The notes beneath the pieces were generated by a model. That model saw nothing but the letters and a program-made list of their open reading frames with translations. It did not search any database and had not been told where the DNA came from. Positions 1 through 46,183 of a stretch of 46,183 bases of DNA are shown here, piece after piece. The stretch's first letter is position 1, and each line of letters opens with the position of its first letter. Position numbers and translations under genes: made by a program. Source of the stretch: a virus; the IMG/VR virus record IMGVR_UViG_3300050133_000017, positions 1 through 46,183 of that record. The stretch is one strand, 5' to 3'.

Positions 1-127
1 TATAATCGTCACCCATACGTGAACGACTCCAACCAGTACGAAGATCGCTGGATAATCGACGTTGGACTGCAATACAATCCTCAGGTAAACGTTGCGCAGG
101 ATTTTGCTGATTCCGCGCTGATCACCA
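1..127. repeat. Terminal overlap, left copy (circular assembly closure or short direct terminal repeat)
   Basis: nt 1-127 read identically to nt 46057-46183. An exact 127-nt end overlap looks like contig circularisation. Confidence 0.95.
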
Positions 128-22538: not shown

Positions 22539-22802
22539 TCACTCGATTGGTAATTCAACACCGCAACGATTGATCTGATCGACGCGCTTTTGGTTGGCCT
22601 TGTTTTCTGCGCGCTGGCGGATGAACTCCAGCGCCTCGGCCTCGCTGTCGAAATAGCGGTAGTAGGTCGATAACTTGGAATCACGTCTAGCAGTTTTCAT
22701 CCGACCAGAAGTGTAGATGTAAAAGCACTCGGTCTCCTTGTCGTATTCCTTGCGCTCAGGAGCTCTCGCATAGGGACTGACCAACCATTTCACAATAGTC
22801 AT
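22539..22802 (-). CDS. Hypothetical protein (87 aa)
   Basis: Start overlaps the ParB-like stop. Confidence 0.55.
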   Translation of the reverse strand: MTIVKWLVSPYARAPERKEYDKETECFYIYTSGRMKTARRDSKLSTYYRYFDSEAEALEFIRQRAENKANQKRVDQINRCGVELPIE

Positions 22803-23710
22803 TATTCGTAACCCCCAAACAACTCAACCTGCTTGTCAGCATCCAGCGCCTTGCCAGCCTGCTGCATTTCGCGAACGGCCATGATCAGGTCACCCAATGC
22901 TTCGGAGCTAACCAAAATCTTGTCAGAGACTTTTCCATTGCTGATTGCATCCTCCATCAACCTACCAATGCCATTGACTAGAACCACCGCATTAGAAACC
23001 ACCATATCCACACGCGGACGACTAGGCGGCTTAGGTGCCACAACCTTCGCAGTCACCTTGGCCTTACCCTGCTCAGCAGCCACTTCAATACGGCGCTCCA
23101 GTTCCTTGGGGGCTTCATCGCCGAACTCGCGCACCAGTTTTACAGCATCTGTAGGTGAAATCTTGCCAGCCGCTACGGCTTGATGAACCTCTTCCGTGCC
23201 TTTGCTTGCCAGCAAGATCATCTGGTCAACGTGCGCCAGCGACATGCCTGCCTCTGCGGCAATCTCCTGGCGGGTTGCGCCAAGAACATCGCGAGCATGC
23301 AGGTAGATGCGGCCAAGCTCGATTGGCTTGAGCTTGAGTTGCTTGTTGCTGGAGGCGATGCGCATTTTGCGCTGGAATGGGGTGCCGTTGAATTTCACGG
23401 CGTCGATGTAGTTATCGAATTCCGGGTCGATGCGCGAGTATTCCAAAGCGGCCGCATAGCGCTGATGACCGTCGACCAGCTCAATGTCGCCGTTTTCAGG
23501 GTTTACCCAGACTTCAATGGCGGGAATTGGCATGCCCGCCACGATGGCCGCGACAATGCTGGCGATGTGTTCGCGCAGTTCGTCGTCCTCGGTACGCTCG
23601 TTGAAGCCGTCGACAACCTTGATGTGCTTGATGTTTACGCGGATTGAGTCGCCGCGCTTGGCGGCTTCGTTGGTTTTATCGGATGCGATGTTGTTGAGGG
23701 TGTAGGCCAT
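22802..23710 (-). CDS. ParB/Srx-like N-terminal domain protein with HTH
   Basis: Motif ELVDGHQRYAAA. Central HTH-like GATRQEIAAEAGMSLAHVDQ. 302 aa. Confidence 0.65.
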   Translation of the reverse strand: MAYTLNNIASDKTNEAAKRGDSIRVNIKHIKVVDGFNERTEDDELREHIASIVAAIVAGMPIPAIEVWVNPENGDIELVDGHQRYAAALEYSRIDPEFDNYIDAVKFNGTPFQRKMRIASSNKQLKLKPIELGRIYLHARDVLGATRQEIAAEAGMSLAHVDQMILLASKGTEEVHQAVAAGKISPTDAVKLVREFGDEAPKELERRIEVAAEQGKAKVTAKVVAPKPPSRPRVDMVVSNAVVLVNGIGRLMEDAISNGKVSDKILVSSEALGDLIMAVREMQQAGKALDADKQVELFGGYE

Positions 23711-24255
23711 TATTCTTGCTCCTTGACGATCTCGATTGCTTTAGCTGGAGAGGTTTCGATAATGGTTTTCAGGATTGGCTTCCAAATTTTCCACCAGCTT
23801 GATGCCATAGGATCCATACTCGATATTTCTGAATCGCCAAAATTCCACCATTCTTCCAGGGTGTGGAATTGGCAGCCAATCTGCATGCGTTCGGCGGTGT
23901 AAGTGACCGGCCAATAGTCGCATTGGATCGATTTAACTTCTGACATATTGCCGATAGCGCCCCATATAGATTTGGCGTAGCGCAGGTTGGCGTAGCTCAG
24001 GGTGGCGTAGCTCAGGTTGGTGGAGCTCAGGTTGGCGTAGCGCAGGTCGGCGTAGCTCAGGTTGGCGTAGCGCAGGTCGGCGTAGCTCAGGTCGGCGTAG
24101 CTCAGGTCGGCGTAGCGCAGGTTGGCGTAGCGCAGGTCGGTGGAGCTCAGGTCGGCGTAGCGCAGGTCGGCGCGTTCTCCAGCCTCATCGCCAGCAAGCC
24201 ATTTGTGATGCTTTTCAATAACCTCTGCAAGCTCTACAGCAGTAAAAGTCTTCAT
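23710..24255 (-). CDS. Pentapeptide-repeat protein
   Basis: ATG 24255 follows AGGAG. It has 13 consecutive A(D/N)L(R/S)Y-type pentapeptides (ADLRYADLSSTDLRYANLRY...). 181 aa. Confidence 0.85.
   Translation of the reverse strand: MKTFTAVELAEVIEKHHKWLAGDEAGERADLRYADLSSTDLRYANLRYADLSYADLSYADLRYANLSYADLRYANLSSTNLSYATLSYANLRYAKSIWGAIGNMSEVKSIQCDYWPVTYTAERMQIGCQFHTLEEWWNFGDSEISSMDPMASSWWKIWKPILKTIIETSPAKAIEIVKEQE
23975..24170 (-). repeat. 15-bp periodic coding repeat (gtagcKcaggtYggc) encoding the pentapeptide repeats
   Basis: Read directly from the sequence. It lies in frame within CDS 23710..24255. Confidence 0.9.
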
Positions 24256-26836: not shown

Positions 26837-26862
26837 TAAAAAAGCCAGCGGTTAGGCTGGCT
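26837..26862 (-). terminator. Intrinsic terminator (leftward)
   Basis: Minus strand: AGCCAGC-ctaacc-GCTGGCT followed by TTTTTT, right after the stop of 26867..27169. Confidence 0.8.
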
Positions 26863-26866
26863 ATGA

Positions 26867-27169
26867 TTATCGATCTTTAAACGGTTCGCGGGGTTTGTGC
26901 TTGTATCGATGCCAGCCGTCTGTCAATTCTATTTCTTCGTAGATTGAGCGCCGATCAGAAAACCCAAGCTCTACTGCCAGGGCGTGTAGCTCATGGTCAA
27001 TCTTTATATTGTCCATGCCGATCCAGTCTGCATCGGCGTTGCGCTTGTTTGCCTGCTTTGGCGTCAAGTCCATAAGGCTGGCGCTGCTGAGCTTTTCCAT
27101 GCGCTTGTTGTTAATCTTGCGCTTTCGCAAGAGGGCTATCATTGAATCAATTTGTTTTTCGGTAGACAT
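26867..27169 (-). CDS. Hypothetical protein (100 aa)
   Basis: ORF with a lysine-rich N-terminus, bounded by terminators. Confidence 0.55.
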   Translation of the reverse strand: MSTEKQIDSMIALLRKRKINNKRMEKLSSASLMDLTPKQANKRNADADWIGMDNIKIDHELHALAVELGFSDRRSIYEEIELTDGWHRYKHKPREPFKDR

Positions 27170-27180
27170 CTATAGAGCTC

Positions 27181-27204
27181 CAAGGAAAGGCTCCTTTCGG
27201 AGCC
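27181..27204 (-). terminator. Intrinsic terminator (leftward, probably leaky)
   Basis: Minus strand: GGCTCC-gaaa-GGAGCC followed by TTTCCTT. Confidence 0.6.
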
Positions 27205-27212
27205 CTTCGGCT

Positions 27213-27413
27213 TTACTTCATGCTTTTCAGGATCGAGGCGCAAACTGCGCAGTTTTTACCTTTGAGGCTAGCTTGCCATTTTGCGATCTTTTCGTTTGCT
27301 TCCTTGATCGCATCCTCTTTCACCGAAGCTTCTACCATGATCGTTTTGGTGCGGTTCAGTGTGCAGCCGCAAGTGTCGCAAGAGATTTTGGCTTTAGCTT
27401 TCAGTGCGTTCAT
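27213..27413 (-). CDS. Small Zn-ribbon-like protein (66 aa)
   Basis: CDTCGC near the N-terminus and CAVC near the C-terminus. It is the first gene after promoter P27. Confidence 0.55.
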   Translation of the reverse strand: MNALKAKAKISCDTCGCTLNRTKTIMVEASVKEDAIKEANEKIAKWQASLKGKNCAVCASILKSMK

Positions 27414-27450
27414 TTCGTTTACTCCGTGTGTGTTGCGTTTCGATGGGACA

Positions 27451-27479
27451 ATAATCGCACAGCATAATAACTATGTCAA
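27451..27479 (-). promoter_or_regulatory. Family promoter P27: TTGACA-N17-GATTAT
   Basis: Minus strand: gTTGACAtagttattatgctgtgcGATTAT. -35 at 27474-27479, -10 at 27451-27456. Confidence 0.7.
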
Positions 27480-27490
27480 CCATCAAGATA

Positions 27491-27512
27491 GAAAAAGGCC
27501 GAATTAACGGCC
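27491..27512 (-). terminator. Intrinsic terminator (leftward)
   Basis: Minus strand: GGCCG-ttaatt-CGGCC followed by TTTTTC. Confidence 0.7.
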
Positions 27513-27522
27513 TCTGTCTTCA

Positions 27523-27672: not shown

Positions 27673-27875
27673 GATTTTAGGTTCTCATCTGGGTCAAATC
27701 CAAATTCACGGCATAGCGCATTTGCTACACCAGACCCAACCGCAAATGCATCGCGGACAAGAACCCACCGAGCTGTTCCATGCTTATTACGGTATTTGCT
27801 TGGCCCCCTAAGATTGCGGATAACGCCCCAGATCAGGTCACGCTCTTCAATTTCACACCCAGATAAAAGCATCAT
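27669..27875 (-). CDS. Hypothetical protein (68 aa)
   Basis: ATGA coupling on both sides. Confidence 0.55.
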   Translation of the reverse strand: MMLLSGCEIEERDLIWGVIRNLRGPSKYRNKHGTARWVLVRDAFAVGSGVANALCREFGFDPDENLKS

Positions 27876-28063
27876 GCTTTTCCACCCCCTTCAAAATGCC
27901 GATCGCACTCAGCCTTTGCCACATCCAGGTCGGTAAATGGCCGACTTATAAAATCACCCTTCAGGCTTGGCCGGTAAAAGGTTTCTTCGCCAGCGCGATA
28001 CTTGCCTATTTTGTAGCCTTCGTCGCTGACCAGCAGATGAGGGGTTTCGCGGCGCCAGATCAT
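27872..28063 (-). CDS. Hypothetical protein (63 aa)
   Basis: ATG 28063 follows GGAGCATCAGC and overlaps the stop of the 28-aa micro-ORF (ATGA). Confidence 0.5.
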   Translation of the reverse strand: MIWRRETPHLLVSDEGYKIGKYRAGEETFYRPSLKGDFISRPFTDLDVAKAECDRHFEGGGKA

Positions 28064-28146
28064 GCTGATGCTCCAATGCTGTAACCAAGAAGTCCACACA
28101 AAAAGCAGCAAACGAGAATCCAGAACAGCAATTCAAGGCTTCTCAT
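28060..28146 (-). CDS. Hydrophobic micro-protein (28 aa, MRSLELLFWILVCCFLCGLLGYSIGASA)
   Basis: ATGA coupling to the CsrA-like gene upstream and to the next gene downstream. One predicted TM helix. Confidence 0.5.
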   Translation of the reverse strand: MRSLELLFWILVCCFLCGLLGYSIGASA

Positions 28147-28415
28147 TTCAGCAGCTCCGTCCGCACGATCTTGACCGACTTGTCGGCCTCGAATGCCAGG
28201 CGTACTTGGGAGCCGCTGATACCGGTCACCTCAAGGTTCAGGCCGACATCGGAAAGCAGATAGCTCGCGTACAGCGGAATCCAGCAACCGTTTTGAATAT
28301 TGCTAGCCTCGAAAACCACGTAGATTTTCTTCGGATGAACCTCGCGAACAGTCATCACAACGTTGTCGCCGATCTTTACTGATTCGCCAGGACGGCGGGT
28401 TAGGATTAGTGCCAT
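28143..28415 (-). CDS. CsrA/RsmA-family RNA-binding protein, atypical (about 30-aa internal insertion or partial duplication)
   Basis: MALILTRRPGESVKIGDNVVMTV compares with CsrA [22 protein letters not shown]. The C-terminal VTGISGSQVRLAFEADKSVKIVRTEL compares with [32 protein letters not shown] RBS. Confidence 0.65.
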   Translation of the reverse strand: MALILTRRPGESVKIGDNVVMTVREVHPKKIYVVFEASNIQNGCWIPLYASYLLSDVGLNLEVTGISGSQVRLAFEADKSVKIVRTELLK

Positions 28416-28539
28416 GGTGGATCTCCTTGAAAATAATGGTTATAGCTTTGGGTTGAGGCGTTTCAGATCGTCGAGGCAGGCGTTCCAGCCGCAATCGTAT
28501 GGTGATTGGTAGCCGTCCATCTGCTCGGTATCGAGATGT

Positions 28540-29130
28540 TCAGGCAGCACAACCGCTACCGGCGGCGGTCTGCTCGGCGAGCAGTTCCACAGTTACGCGA
28601 AACTCACGGCCTTCAAGATCGTTTCTGTGCCGCAAGTCCTGAGTTAAATCGTTGAAGTCTGGCAGGCCCTCGAAGTATCGGCAAAAAACATGATCGCCCT
28701 CACAGCACGCGCACCTGTTAGCGTCTTCACTTGTGCTGCGCATGAACGTCAGGACGCCGACACCTTGCGCCAGCGCCACCGGCTCGCCTTGGGGCTGGGC
28801 GGCTGCATTTTCAGCGTTCACGCGTTCGATGTATGCAGGAAGAAGGGTCGGTGGAAATGTATCCTCCCACGGCTTCACGTTGCGCTTTGCCGATTCTTGG
28901 AGAAGATCGACATGGCCTACAAGCTCGCGAACAAGGTCATACCAATCCGAAACATCGTAGAACTTACAAAGCGCCGGATCTGGTTCAGCTTGCGATTTTG
29001 CGCAAGGTGCCGAATCAAGGAGGGCGCGCAGTTCGGCGTGAGGAATTCCGAAGCCGGCCTCGAAGCATGCCAGCATTGCCTTATCAATCAGCTCACGCGG
29101 CACGCCGTCAATCGTTTGGTTGGTGGTCAT
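28540..29130 (-). CDS. Hypothetical protein (196 aa)
   Basis: ATGA-coupled ORF. No motif recognised. Confidence 0.55.
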   Translation of the reverse strand: MTTNQTIDGVPRELIDKAMLACFEAGFGIPHAELRALLDSAPCAKSQAEPDPALCKFYDVSDWYDLVRELVGHVDLLQESAKRNVKPWEDTFPPTLLPAYIERVNAENAAAQPQGEPVALAQGVGVLTFMRSTSEDANRCACCEGDHVFCRYFEGLPDFNDLTQDLRHRNDLEGREFRVTVELLAEQTAAGSGCAA

Positions 29131-29489
29131 GGCTTCACATGCTCCGCAGTAAGGTCCTTATCAATCCACACAGCTTTACCAGTGCCTTGGCAGTACCGGC
29201 ATTTGCTTCGCTCAACATGGGTAGGGTCGTCGCAACGGTCGCCGTTACAGCAGTGGTTGCAGCGATCACCGCCCCATACTTTCCAGCCGGTGGGAGGCAT
29301 GCTTTTTTGCACCTCTTGTAGCGTCAGCTCGTCACCCTGGTCAGTCATGGTGAATATAGGGTCAAGTGTCAGATGATCGCCTTGCGCAGCCCAAAGCCAG
29401 CCGTCTGGCGGTGGAAACACAGGCTTTTTGAAGTCGCACCGATTGTCCTTACACCACTGAATCGCTTGCACCCTTGTCGCATCACTCAT
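29127..29489 (-). CDS. Cys-rich protein with a DnaJ-type CxxCxGxG zinc-finger motif (120 aa)
   Basis: C-terminal CNHCCNGDRCDD...CRYCQGTGKA. Confidence 0.55.
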   Translation of the reverse strand: MSDATRVQAIQWCKDNRCDFKKPVFPPPDGWLWAAQGDHLTLDPIFTMTDQGDELTLQEVQKSMPPTGWKVWGGDRCNHCCNGDRCDDPTHVERSKCRYCQGTGKAVWIDKDLTAEHVKP

Positions 29490-29553
29490 AAATCACCTCA
29501 GCAAATCAGTTGTGCCAGTGCCAGCAGGCACCAGAAGTAGGCGGGGAGTTGGG

Positions 29554-29703
29554 TTAGGGCTTCGACTCGCATTCATCGCAACGCCACTCCACATGTGGAA
29601 CGAGCGGGCCAAACAGCCAGAAGCGTTTAGCCATCCGGGCCACCTTCCACAGCTGGCCCCATTCCTTGCAGCGAGGACAGGTGCCGAATGCTTTATTACT
29701 CAT
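29554..29703 (-). CDS. Small Zn-ribbon protein (49 aa)
   Basis: The internal ATG 29703 overlaps the end of the upstream gene. Motif CPRC...CDEC. Confidence 0.5.
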   Translation of the reverse strand: MSNKAFGTCPRCKEWGQLWKVARMAKRFWLFGPLVPHVEWRCDECESKP

Positions 29704-30691: not shown

Positions 30692-30720
30692 ATAGTAGAC
30701 ATAGATAATTAGTATGTCAA
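30692..30720 (-). promoter_or_regulatory. Family promoter P30: TTGACA-N17-TACTAT
   Basis: Minus strand: gTTGACAtactaattatctatgtcTACTAT. -35 at 30715-30720, -10 at 30692-30697. It overlaps the stop of the upstream gene. Confidence 0.65.
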
Positions 30721-33592: not shown

Positions 33593-33621
33593 ATTATGAG
33601 CACACAAGATGCGCAAGTCAA
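33593..33621 (-). promoter_or_regulatory. Leftward early promoter PL: TTGACT-N17-CATAAT
   Basis: Minus strand: tTTGACTtgcgcatcttgtgtgctCATAAT. -35 at 33616-33621, -10 at 33593-33598. Confidence 0.6.
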
Positions 33622-34045: not shown

Positions 34046-35025
34046 GTGGTGAATAGCTCAACCCGCATTGCGCAGGGTTAGCGCCAACCTGGTATTGGCG
34101 AGCTATCTTGATCTGGCACAAGCACAATAGGCCTGAGATCCAGCAAATGTAATAATTGGGCTTTAAACGGTCTGGATTAAGATGGGTCGCTAGAATTGCT
34201 TGATGTTGATAGAGTAATCAGCGAATTGAATACGGACGTGGAACTCGTCGCCGGAGACGTAAACGGCACAAATTTTAAACGCTTTTTAAATCTGAAGTTG
34301 TTATTCGCATGCCAAGTAAAGGGATTGAGTTGCCGGCAGTTTGCGTGAATATCTGGGTTGCTATGGTGATGTCAATCAGGCGCTGATCTGATCAATCATG
34401 TGTAAAGTCTCTTGGCAATGACCAGTTAGACTCTGGTTACTTGGCAGCCGAATAACAATTACACCGAATATGACTCTAATGTAACGGCAGCATGCGGGAT
34501 TCCAAATCCTTGCAGTGTGGGTTAGAATCCTACGAGTCATGCCAAACACCGATTGCAAGTCGGTTCAACCTGTAAAGTTTGCCCGGAGTCCTCCTAACTC
34601 CTGCGGTCAGGGCGCAATACAGGAAACTTGCTAGCCAAGGGCATCTTCACCTGTTGTGCTGGTAGTCGCGCCAGTGGCGAAAGAGCGATAGACTTGAGAT
34701 GCGTGATTTAGGACGCCAGCCCGCAGATGCGGAAATCGTCTTTATCGGAAAGAATCCAGTCATCGTGTTGGTATGTGATGTGCCAAGGGGATAGATACAA
34801 AGTGGATTCTTTACCGATGCAGATGAATGCGCAGGCTGATGCGATAATCATGAGATGGAGAGATCACCCGGTGTAGCGATACGGTGCGGGTGTAGGGGCT
34901 GAGATGGGTATGGTTAGGTCCCCGGTGATTTATAAAACGAGGCGACACCACCAGCGCGCCTATCCACTCAATGCCTGAGATCAGCACGGGCCATCTGCGT
35001 CAAACCTTTTTGATTTATCCAATTG
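34046..35025 (+). ncRNA. Candidate long noncoding/structured RNA (or long processed leader) containing an embedded tRNA
   Basis: About 1 kb downstream of a consensus promoter with no credible ORF on either strand. Several strong hand-folded helices. The first plus-strand terminator is at 35361-35390. Confidence 0.4.
34470..34544 (+). tRNA. tRNA-Trp: tRNA-Trp (anticodon CCA), slightly non-canonical
   Basis: Hand-folded cloverleaf: acceptor ATGACTC/GAGTCAT, U8, D stem ATGT/GCAT with GG in the loop, anticodon loop TTCCAAA, T stem GTGGG/CCTAC, T loop TTAGAAT (A at position 56), discriminator G and an encoded CCA. Confidence 0.7.
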
Positions 35026-45705: not shown

Positions 45706-46183
45706 ATGGCAACCCTTAAAGTCACGCACCAAGACATCTACAAGGACATCCGTGGCTTCTTGCTGGGCCTGTTCCCTGGTGCAGAAAAACAGATTATTCA
45801 GGCAATCCAGAATAACGAACCGCTACCCCACAACGCGGTCGTGATGAACGTCCTGTTCTCCGACAACTTCGATACCGCCGTCGTGACAAATCTCCCGCCT
45901 ACCGAGGCCGCGATTCAGAACTCTGTAGAGGTCCGGTTGCAACTGGACTTCTACGGCCAAAACGCCGAAGCTCGCAGTCGTGTCGTGAGCAACCTGTGGC
46001 GTACTAATTATGCTTGCGAGCGTCTTTTAGTCTGTCAACCGCTATACGTTCAGTCGTATAATCGTCACCCATACGTGAACGACTCCAACCAGTACGAAGA
46101 TCGCTGGATAATCGACGTTGGACTGCAATACAATCCTCAGGTAAACGTTGCGCAGGATTTTGCTGATTCCGCGCTGATCACCA
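45706..46183 (+). CDS. N-terminal part of the junction-spanning structural protein (continues at 1..147)
   Basis: ATG 45706 lies 2 nt after the upstream stop. The frame is open to the window end and continues in frame through the 127-nt overlap. Confidence 0.7.
   Translation, partial: MATLKVTHQDIYKDIRGFLLGLFPGAEKQIIQAIQNNEPLPHNAVVMNVLFSDNFDTAVVTNLPPTEAAIQNSVEVRLQLDFYGQNAEARSRVVSNLWRTNYACERLLVCQPLYVQSYNRHPYVNDSNQYEDRWIIDVGLQYNPQVNVAQDFADSALIT
46057..46183. repeat. Terminal overlap, right copy
   Basis: Identical to nt 1-127. Confidence 0.95.

Follow-up and report, generated by a model that had tools for sequence, protein, structure and literature searches.

A phage gene for a CsrA-family protein predicted to hold one and a half CsrA copies in a single chain

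Proteins of the CsrA/RsmA family are understood as two-site dimers. Canonical CsrA is an obligate domain-swapped homodimer with two identical RNA sites able to bridge two motifs, and each site is composed of β1 of one subunit and β4 and β5 of the other (known RNA-binding determinants: L2, L4, R6, A36, V40, V42, R44, E46, and I47). The bridging of GGA motifs and the cooperative capture by sponge RNAs both depend on this bivalency. The sheets are ordered β5A-β2B-β3B-β4B-β1A in RsmA and β5A-β2A-β3B-β4B-β1B in RsmN, in which one RNA is contacted per chain (PMC3791407). RsmN carries as its insert a 16-residue α-helix with a Gly-Ile motif at the end, and its dimer consists of two docked monomers and has ten strands. 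A single-chain form has been engineered as Re-CsrA, CsrA(1-44)-(G4S)2-CsrA (Ye et al. 2018, PMC5864733; PDB 5Z38). In the crystal, M1-P37 of its first part and M1-K55 of its second are folded into a compact core, a β-barrel resembling that of the native dimer. There is one ligand site, and the protein has kept its RNA binding; Re-CsrA behaved as a ~12.5-kDa monovalent species, two of which are bound per CesT dimer with no polymerisation (PMC5864733). CsrA homologues are also known on mobile elements, namely the RsmM-type proteins in Pseudomonas aeruginosa phages (Sobrero & Valverde 2020), phage RsmA (Campa et al. 2021), and plasmid RsmQ (PMC9928087), and phage CsrAs have been proposed to reprogramme the host or damp CRISPR-Cas (PMC8450108, PMC7366521). 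Here, a csrA-like gene was analysed in the virus record IMGVR_UViG_3300050133_000017 of IMG/VR (positions 1 to 46,183, the whole stretch being called the window). Its product of 90 amino acids (aa) is a CsrA-family member that, judged from profile matches and a structure model, consists of about one and a half CsrA copies.

The gene is located on the minus strand and runs from 28415 to 28143, as given by the list of open reading frames (ORFs) and the sequence, from an ATG start (28415-28413) to a TGA stop (28145-28143). A longer in-frame start was looked for in the sequence and none was found. The full 90-aa product, MALILTRRPGESVKIGDNVVMTVREVHPKKIYVVFEASNIQNGCWIPLYASYLLSDVGLNLEVTGISGSQVRLAFEADKSVKIVRTELLK, begins with MALILTRRPGES and ends with VRTELLK. 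The gene and its ribosome-binding signal are:

28143..28415, minus strand: coding sequence of the 90-aa CsrA-family protein, stop codon included (PF02599 at 61.1 bits, 54 relatives, dN/dS)
28423..28428, minus strand: Shine-Dalgarno AAGGAG, 7 nt 5' of the csrA-like ATG (read from the sequence)

Judged by the ratio of nonsynonymous to synonymous substitution rates (dN/dS), 0.22-0.40 against five relatives, the gene is under purifying selection. A chance reading frame was ruled out by the profile matches, the conservation, and dN/dS. The plus-strand translation of 28143-28415 has many stops, and an overlapping plus-strand ORF of 106 aa (28062-28382) was rejected as a real gene, as it is the minus-strand product that has the profile matches and the conserved relatives; no search was made with the plus-strand ORF itself.

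The Pfam family CsrA (PF02599) matched the 90-aa protein in two stretches with 61.1 bits (gathering cut-off 27), and PHROG 9500, 'CsrA-like regulator', matched it with an E-value of 7e-12. The NCBIfam csrA equivalog models TIGR00202 and NF002469 gave 49.3 and 48.7 bits, under their cut-offs of 70.1 and 73. The protein is thus, by its profile scores, a member of the family and no ordinary CsrA, because PF02599 is above its cut-off and the equivalog models are below theirs; it is not an equivalog of canonical CsrA. Among the sequences of solved structures, RsmE, CsrA, and RsmA each matched it in two pieces, RsmF/RsmN matched residues 54-88, and the first 21 aligned residues were 62% identical to RsmE. 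A preliminary description made from the sequence had proposed a phage gene of the CsrA family, to be checked by profile searches, with the RNA-binding signatures of β1 and β5 kept, including the critical Arg. The phage origin was borne out, the family assignment passed the profile check, and the signatures agree with the conservation in the family (see below).

To resolve the internal structure, a canonical hidden Markov model (HMM) built from 33 canonical-length CsrAs was used. Residues 1-38 matched positions 1-38 of this model (48.2 bits, E-value 6e-15), and residues 61-90 matched positions 21-50 (42.8 bits, E-value 3e-13). Since both matches are independent and significant, the β3-β4 segment is present twice in the chain; the partial internal duplication that had been suspected, with a β3-β4-like first half, was in this way recovered. 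The extra material had been put at about 30 residues and amounts to ~41 relative to the 49-residue CsrA core, with borders that the duplication of β3-β4 leaves ambiguous. Between the two β3-β4 copies, identity is only 6-25% across the family. When residues 61-90 were extended back in register, a complete CsrA core started at residue 42, three residues past the end of copy 1. The extrapolated linker is thus 3 aa here; most of the family has 1-3 aa, and among 80 diverse relatives the median is 3 (interquartile range 1-5). The 22 residues between the matches fit a degenerate β1'-β2' in length and register, and the modelled strands at 40-47 and 51-54 fall at the positions expected for β1' and β2' of an in-register copy 2. 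From the two matches, the extension, and the placement of these strands, the chain is read as β1-β2-β3-β4, linker, (β1')-(β2')-β3'-β4'-β5', i.e., about 1.5 CsrA copies without the C-terminal helix. The parts are as follows:

28302..28415, minus strand: copy 1, aa 1-38, β1-β4, lacking β5 and the helix; includes the RNA-binding residues of β1 (L3, L5, R7, and R8; canonical HMM and DSSP)
28236..28301, minus strand: linker, aa 39-41, and degenerate β1'-β2' of copy 2, aa 42-60 (DSSP, register, and column conservation)
28146..28235, minus strand: recognisable copy 2, aa 61-90, β3'-β4'-β5', with QVRL 70-73, V81, I83, R85, E87, and L88, and one helical turn at the end (canonical HMM and conservation)

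In the model, DSSP assigned the copy 1 strands to residues 3-7, 12-15, 19-27, and 30-37. The chain terminates at the equivalent of CsrA residue 49, with just one helical turn (86-88). The segment 39-60 is the most variable part of the protein: W45 is invariant, L48 and Y49 are conserved at 98% and 80%, and no basic residue is conserved. With 90 aa and nine modelled strands, the protein does not match the canonical layout of a single β1-β5 core plus C-terminal α-helix in 55-75 aa. The first canonical match stops before β5 and the second runs through β5, which is the pattern that defines the 1.5-copy layout.

The residues of one RNA site were kept and those of its mirror image were not. Within the family, L5, R7, and R85 are invariant, and Q70, V71, R72, L73, V81, I83, E87, and L88 are conserved at 90% or above. 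The kept set therefore comprises β1 (L3, L5, R7, R8), β4' (Q70, V71, R72, L73), and β5' (V81, I83, R85, E87, L88), all invariant or nearly so. In the mirror set, β1' has no conserved basic residue (none is conserved in residues 38-60), β4 of copy 1 reads KKIY and not QVRL, and β5 of copy 1 is absent. Across 73 diverse 1.5-copy proteins, R7 and R85 were the sole invariant residues, with L3, L5, A77, and E87 at 90% or above; L3, L5, R7, A77, R85, and E87 correspond to CsrA L2, L4, R6, A36, R44, and E46. From this pattern we infer one RNA-binding site per molecule, as only a single GGA surface would be complete: of the elements of the second, β1' is degenerate, β4 of copy 1 has changed, and β5 of copy 1 is missing. 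Another part of copy 1 is also conserved. In its basic β3-β4 hairpin, T22, R24, E25, V26, H27, P28, K29, and K30 are conserved at 85-100% in the family (motif TVREVHPKK, aa 22-30, window 28325-28352, minus strand), and the equivalent loop is unconserved in the wider class.

The 90-aa chain was modelled as a monomer with AlphaFold2 using the 54-member family alignment. The model (predicted local distance difference test score, pLDDT, 94.1; predicted template modelling score, pTM, 0.83) had nine strands, with sheets that take in both β1 (3-7) and the last strand (83-85). As a control, the closest canonical relative (P0055, 58 aa) was modelled with the same-family alignment (pLDDT 81.6, pTM 0.57). 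Strands β2-β4 only were formed in it, and β1 and β5 were unpaired, as expected of a subunit that requires a partner. The strand pairing is more telling than the pTM, because the latter depends on chain length. Threaded on the RsmA/RsmN scheme, the protein would have the sheets β5'-β2-β3-β4-β1' and β2'-β3'-β4'-β1. The interleaved, domain-swapped dimer, whose absence from the predicted fold had been named beforehand as a refuting outcome, was not what the modelling returned: the model is a monomer with β1 and β5 paired in the chain, and it points to a probable pseudo-dimer within one chain, in which the CsrA β-sandwich would still be built.

The same contrast with the control bears on a further proposal, that the protein is a dominant-negative partner that heterodimerises with host CsrA or RsmA. 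Its β1 and β5 sequences are near those of canonical Rsm proteins, as seen in the 62% identity to RsmE noted above, and canonical subunits dimerise by strand exchange. Such a heterodimer poison is nevertheless very improbable, because the chain brings its partner strands with it: in the model, unlike in P0055, β1 and β5 have their pairing, and no strand is left unsatisfied save one edge position.

In a Foldseek search against the PDB, RsmN/RsmF chains were at the top (template modelling score, TM, 0.65-0.69 normalised to their length), and no CsrA/RsmA/RsmE entry was among the 50 matches listed. The likeness to RsmN/RsmF drawn in the preliminary description therefore holds for the best PDB folds, for the site of the insert, and for the missing helix. 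It fails for the insert itself, which is modelled as four β-strands and not as a 16-residue α-helix; an RsmN-type helix was ruled out on this ground. The insert strands would take the place of RsmN's partner subunit. RsmN and RsmF are dimers of docked compact monomers, and the phage chains could likewise dock in the RsmN manner or edge to edge, giving a bivalent dimer with two RNA sites at a new spacing, i.e., an enlarged but ordinary global regulator of the CsrA/RsmN type. The vacant position of copy-1 β5 leaves a free sheet edge for such docking, on which monomer predictions are silent. Set against it, the strands that RsmN takes from its partner come here from the same chain, so that the RsmN interface is occupied, and Re-CsrA, which has the same design, is monovalent at ~12.5 kDa and does not polymerise. 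We consider the bivalent dimer unlikely, with some real chance left to it.

Among predicted viral structures (BFVD), Foldseek gave fifteen matches with E-values of 0.001 or lower over the whole model (TM 0.70-0.95). One was a family member (68% identical, TM 0.95), and about fourteen were other phage proteins of 81-201 aa with 13-26% identity (TM 0.70-0.87). A canonical 61-aa phage CsrA reached a TM of 0.48 only.

Taken with the kept RNA site and with the experimental precedent of Re-CsrA, the model makes it rather probable that the protein is a self-sufficient monovalent GGA binder, a single-chain CsrA of 1.5 copies. Copy 1 would be truncated after β4 (aa 1-38) and followed by a linker of ~3 residues and by a full-length copy 2 core (aa 42-90) in which β1'-β2' have decayed. 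The chain would fold alone into the β-sandwich normally built by two CsrA subunits, with β1 of copy 1 pairing into the copy-2 sheet and β5' of copy 2 into the copy-1 sheet. One complete GGA surface would result from β1, β4', and β5', with the Arg7-Glu87 pair in one chain. We infer both the intramolecular fold and the single site in this way. The product would occlude single GGA motifs, either Shine-Dalgarno-overlapping sites on host or phage mRNAs or motifs in RsmX/Y/Z, and would be unable to bridge two sites. It would not exchange subunits with host RsmA/E/I, and it would probably be poorly captured by sponge RNAs, because these clamp dimers cooperatively. The targets and the benefit to the phage are speculative; early expression and a reprogramming of host regulons are plausible, and the damping of CRISPR-Cas proposed for other phage CsrAs may apply here too.

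The same fold could also serve a different end, its main target being the sponge RNAs RsmX/Y/Z or one of two sites in a host leader, by which host RsmA/E would be freed or antagonised. With one site, two motifs cannot be bridged; glgC is fully repressed only through both surfaces of CsrA, and the binding of RsmE dimers by sponge RNAs is cooperative. The phage genome also has no enrichment of high-affinity motifs to suggest phage targets. Nothing sets this possibility apart from direct repression, and it is considered distinctly unlikely as the main role.

Several points weigh against a self-sufficient, one-site protein. Compared pairwise directly, the two halves are not significantly similar (score 20, reached by 688 of 2000 shuffles), and the duplication claim therefore rests on the profiles and on intermediate, less diverged relatives. 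The pTM values of 0.83 and 0.57 are a soft contrast, as pTM varies with chain length and the control alignment was chimeric. The pairing of strands within the chain was deduced from DSSP, strand count, and register, not from coordinates. The open sheet edge left by the missing β5 of copy 1 could pair with another molecule, and a monomer model leaves oligomers possible. RsmA loses function on truncation into its C-terminal helix, which is absent in the 90-aa protein; RsmN works without the helix. The conserved basic hairpin of copy 1 is unexplained by a one-site model and may be a second functional surface. Finally, the CsrA/RsmE motif WCANGGANGW occurs 5 times in the phage genome against 5.2 expected, i.e., without enrichment. 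An Rfam search of the phage genome for an RNA partner returned a tRNA only, so that neither Rfam nor the motif counts gave any sign of a phage sponge RNA or of enriched phage targets.

The close family of the protein comprises 54 relatives (53-89% identity, 82-99 aa) that recur on contigs of 44-47 kb. When 1.84 billion representative proteins were searched with a profile, 1578 matches were obtained, of which the best 150 were classified with the canonical HMM (the 1.5-copy layout accounts for 81 of them, or for 86 with the five whose second copy lacks β1):

1.5-copy layout as in the phage protein (83-130 aa in most): 81
First copy complete, second copy without β1: 5
Tandem fusions of full copies: 23
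At least three copies: 2
Canonical: 33
Other (single domain of odd length, or two domains and unclassified): 6

Between full tandem fusions at one end and the family of the 90-aa protein at the other, the relatives grade continuously, by way of forms whose β1'-β2' can still be recognised. In one 1.5-copy protein (P0126), the middle is still plainly β1-β2, '...SVIYTRIIDEIINISSDISIKIVGIKGNQVRLG...', and copy 2 covers HMM positions 4-57; the middle segment is recognisable as β1-β2 in P0156 and P0186 as well. Identity between the copies spans 95% to about 0% among the relatives, which indicates duplications of very different ages or repeated duplication. Most members of the 1.5-copy class were matched by PHROGs 5527 (profile of 123 positions) and 31572 (105 positions).

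The layout is not confined to phages. Proteins of the 1.5-copy type with 113-128 aa, annotated just as 'carbon storage regulator', were found on Xanthomonas and Stenotrophomonas plasmids including pXCV183. On pXCV183 (NC_007507.1) the gene lies at 137813-138145, and 13 other Xanthomonas/Stenotrophomonas plasmids bear a 1.5-copy CsrA of about 110-128 aa; half of the large plasmids with such a gene are predicted to be conjugative. Among GenBank phages (INPHARED), tblastn with the 90-aa protein gave a sole match, in phage Psp6 (32% identity); the 1.5-copy query P0099 gave no match and P0126 retrieved canonical-length phage csrA genes only. A scan of 185,579 representative bacterial genomes for prophage copies of the family returned ten loci, all of them canonical single-domain CsrAs, and no family member. 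Dozens of sequence clusters on phages and on Xanthomonas/Stenotrophomonas plasmids are labelled 'carbon storage regulator' or 'hypothetical protein' despite a different architecture and probably different behaviour. It is conceivable, and put forward here tentatively, that phages and plasmids have repeatedly evolved a single-chain monovalent CsrA that does not exchange subunits with the host and largely escapes sponge RNAs, a Gac/Rsm regulator that the host cannot titrate. If true, the mobile element would gain a regulator for the Gac/Rsm regulon, with motility, biofilm, secondary metabolism, and possibly defence systems, and the 90-aa phage protein would belong to this class.

Other arrangements were observed in the same search. 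Metagenomic single-chain multicopy CsrAs (P0091, P0118, P0103, P0100, and P0095) have two complete copies or more; the copies of P0103 are 95% identical over the compared segment, some proteins have three or four copies, and P0091 is 310 aa long. Such natural single-chain multivalent CsrAs, tandem or with three to four copies, appear to be undescribed. P0088, P0090, P0093, and P0097 are longer proteins (116-281 aa) that have a 1.5-copy module at their C-terminus. In P0090 and P0093, the N-terminal portion is rich in Cys (CxxC...CxC...CGCAGC), which suggests a fusion to another domain.

As to the genome, the first 127 bases of the window (1-127) recur exactly at its end (46057-46183), and the assembly is therefore circularly closed (or has a terminal repeat) and represents a complete phage genome of ~46.06 kb. 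The GC content is 54%. Among the encoded proteins are a large terminase, the major head and tape-measure proteins, a primase along with two helicases, a RecE-like exonuclease, and one ParB-like protein. An affinity with phages of the Pseudomonas fluorescens group is indicated by short patches with 95-99% nucleotide identity and by one stretch of 82%. No integrase turned up in the window ORFs that were scanned, and the phage is possibly virulent or a plasmid-like prophage. The csrA-like gene belongs to a leftward operon with a helicase and many small genes of no assigned function, which is probably expressed early. The signals and genes around it are:

34470-34544, plus strand: tRNA-Trp (CCA), within the ~1.5 kb that separate the leftward operon from the rightward late genes
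33593..33621, minus strand: σ70-like promoter match at the head of the leftward operon (consensus scan, 10/12 positions; pattern match only)
30692-30720, minus strand: second σ70-like promoter match (consensus scan; pattern match only)
28060..28146, minus strand: 28-codon hydrophobic ORF, MRSLELLFWILVCCFLCGLLGYSIGASA (sequence and translation)
27872..28063, minus strand: 63-aa gene downstream of the csrA-like gene, PHROG 17150 (PHROG match and synteny)
27494..27515, minus strand: terminator-like hairpin with T-run, putative end of the operon of the csrA-like gene (consensus scan; pattern match only)

The ATG of the 28-codon ORF overlaps the csrA stop (ATGA), and its own stop overlaps the ATG of the next gene (ATGA). 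In related phages (L015-L019), the next gene abuts the csrA-like gene directly without this ORF, which therefore looks like an inserted gene for a putative membrane peptide. The 63-aa gene directly follows the csrA homologue at five related phage loci (78-97% identity), where the upstream genes vary. Pfam gave no match for nine neighbouring small proteins, the 63-aa protein included, and PHROGs assigned the neighbours to function-unknown families only, without a functional clue.

The constant adjacency of the 63-aa gene bears on one more explanation, in which the CsrA scaffold has been repurposed: the working surface would be the basic hairpin (R24, H27, K29, K30), directed at a protein or another nucleic acid, with the 63-aa protein as a possible partner. 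The conservation of TVREVHPKK in the family, and not of the equivalent loop in the wider class, would fit such a role. The 63-aa gene, however, does not accompany distant members, and in the wider class the residues of the canonical RNA site alone are invariant, which speaks for GGA binding as the function under selection. A repurposed scaffold is accordingly given only a slim chance, and the single-chain GGA binder is retained as the favoured interpretation.

Further observations were made in the same part of the window. A 66-aa gene (27213-27413) and a 100-aa gene (26867-27169), within 26843-27479 on the minus strand, are absent from the related phages and lie between a σ70-like promoter match (27479-27451) and a terminator-like hairpin (26862-26843) of their own; by these features, the pair is a moron-like insertion. 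A precomputed label for the 100-aa gene, PF26859 'Phage_N_antitermin', was not reproduced with Pfam and was not used. An intergenic stretch of ~70 nt (29486-29561, minus strand) upstream of the gene starting at 29489 has no GGA motif and is 93-99% identical in the otherwise unrelated Pseudomonas phages HU1, PfAn1, phiAH14a, UFJF_PfDIW6, and TPWB-08. Another patch, about 35-45 nt long and located near 29090-29134, is common to further phages (PPSC2, phCDa, and KT1). These shared patches may be mosaic-junction or regulatory elements. A 181-aa protein (23710-24255, minus strand) with matches to several function-unknown PHROGs is encoded directly upstream of the ParB-like protein (22802-23710, minus strand).

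Compared with the described systems, the locus resembles the RsmM-type proteins, phage RsmA, and RsmQ in being a CsrA-family gene on a mobile element of Pseudomonas and relatives; unlike here, the reports on these make no mention of a duplicated or single-chain form. The 'csrA' of the Pseudomonas putida phage Psp6 (MG251388, 81 aa; 32% identity over 97% of the query), annotated as 'carbon storage regulator', is alike in having extra residues between LILTRK and the β3-β5 block and in ending with ...VRTELL. It differs in being far more diverged: only its C-terminal block matches the canonical HMM significantly, and its middle is not assignable to a duplicated copy. Its setting also differs, in another type of phage and beside a DNA polymerase. 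No description of a natural duplicated or single-chain CsrA was found in full-text searches of the literature, and a survey from 2026 that deals with natural variation of CsrA leaves such a form unmentioned. While CsrA homologues on phages and plasmids are already known, the natural 1.5-copy form, probably a single-chain one, is what appears to be new.

With canonical CsrA, RsmA, and RsmE (1Y00, 2BTI, 2JPP), the phage protein shares the family, the β1 motif LILTRR.GES, and the β4-β5 motif QVRL...V.I.R.EL, and it probably recognises GGA as canonical CsrA does. Canonical CsrA has 55-75 aa with β1-β5 and a C-terminal helix, whereas the phage protein has 90 aa, nine strands in the model, and no helix. 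As in RsmN/RsmF of Pseudomonas aeruginosa (4KJI, 4K59), extra material follows β2 and precedes the functional β3, and there is no C-terminal helix. In RsmN/RsmF, β1 and β5 of one chain form one RNA site with the Arg-Glu pair within the chain, and by analogy the same would apply to the phage protein. No homology was seen between the inserts, that of the phage having ~41 residues in four β-strands from a second CsrA copy and no helix.

A natural one-site single chain would test what bivalency contributes, for which only engineered heterodimers and fusions have been at hand so far. If the proposed reading is true, it would show phages and plasmids adding an Rsm/Csr regulator that is separate from host subunits and perhaps from sponge RNAs. 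The closest counterpart in design is Re-CsrA, in which a copy ordered to β4, a linker, and then a full copy follow each other as in the phage protein. Re-CsrA is man-made, with a 10-residue Gly-Ser linker, an intact β1', and one C-terminal helix, whereas the phage protein is natural and has a linker of ~3 residues, a degenerate β1'-β2', and no helix.

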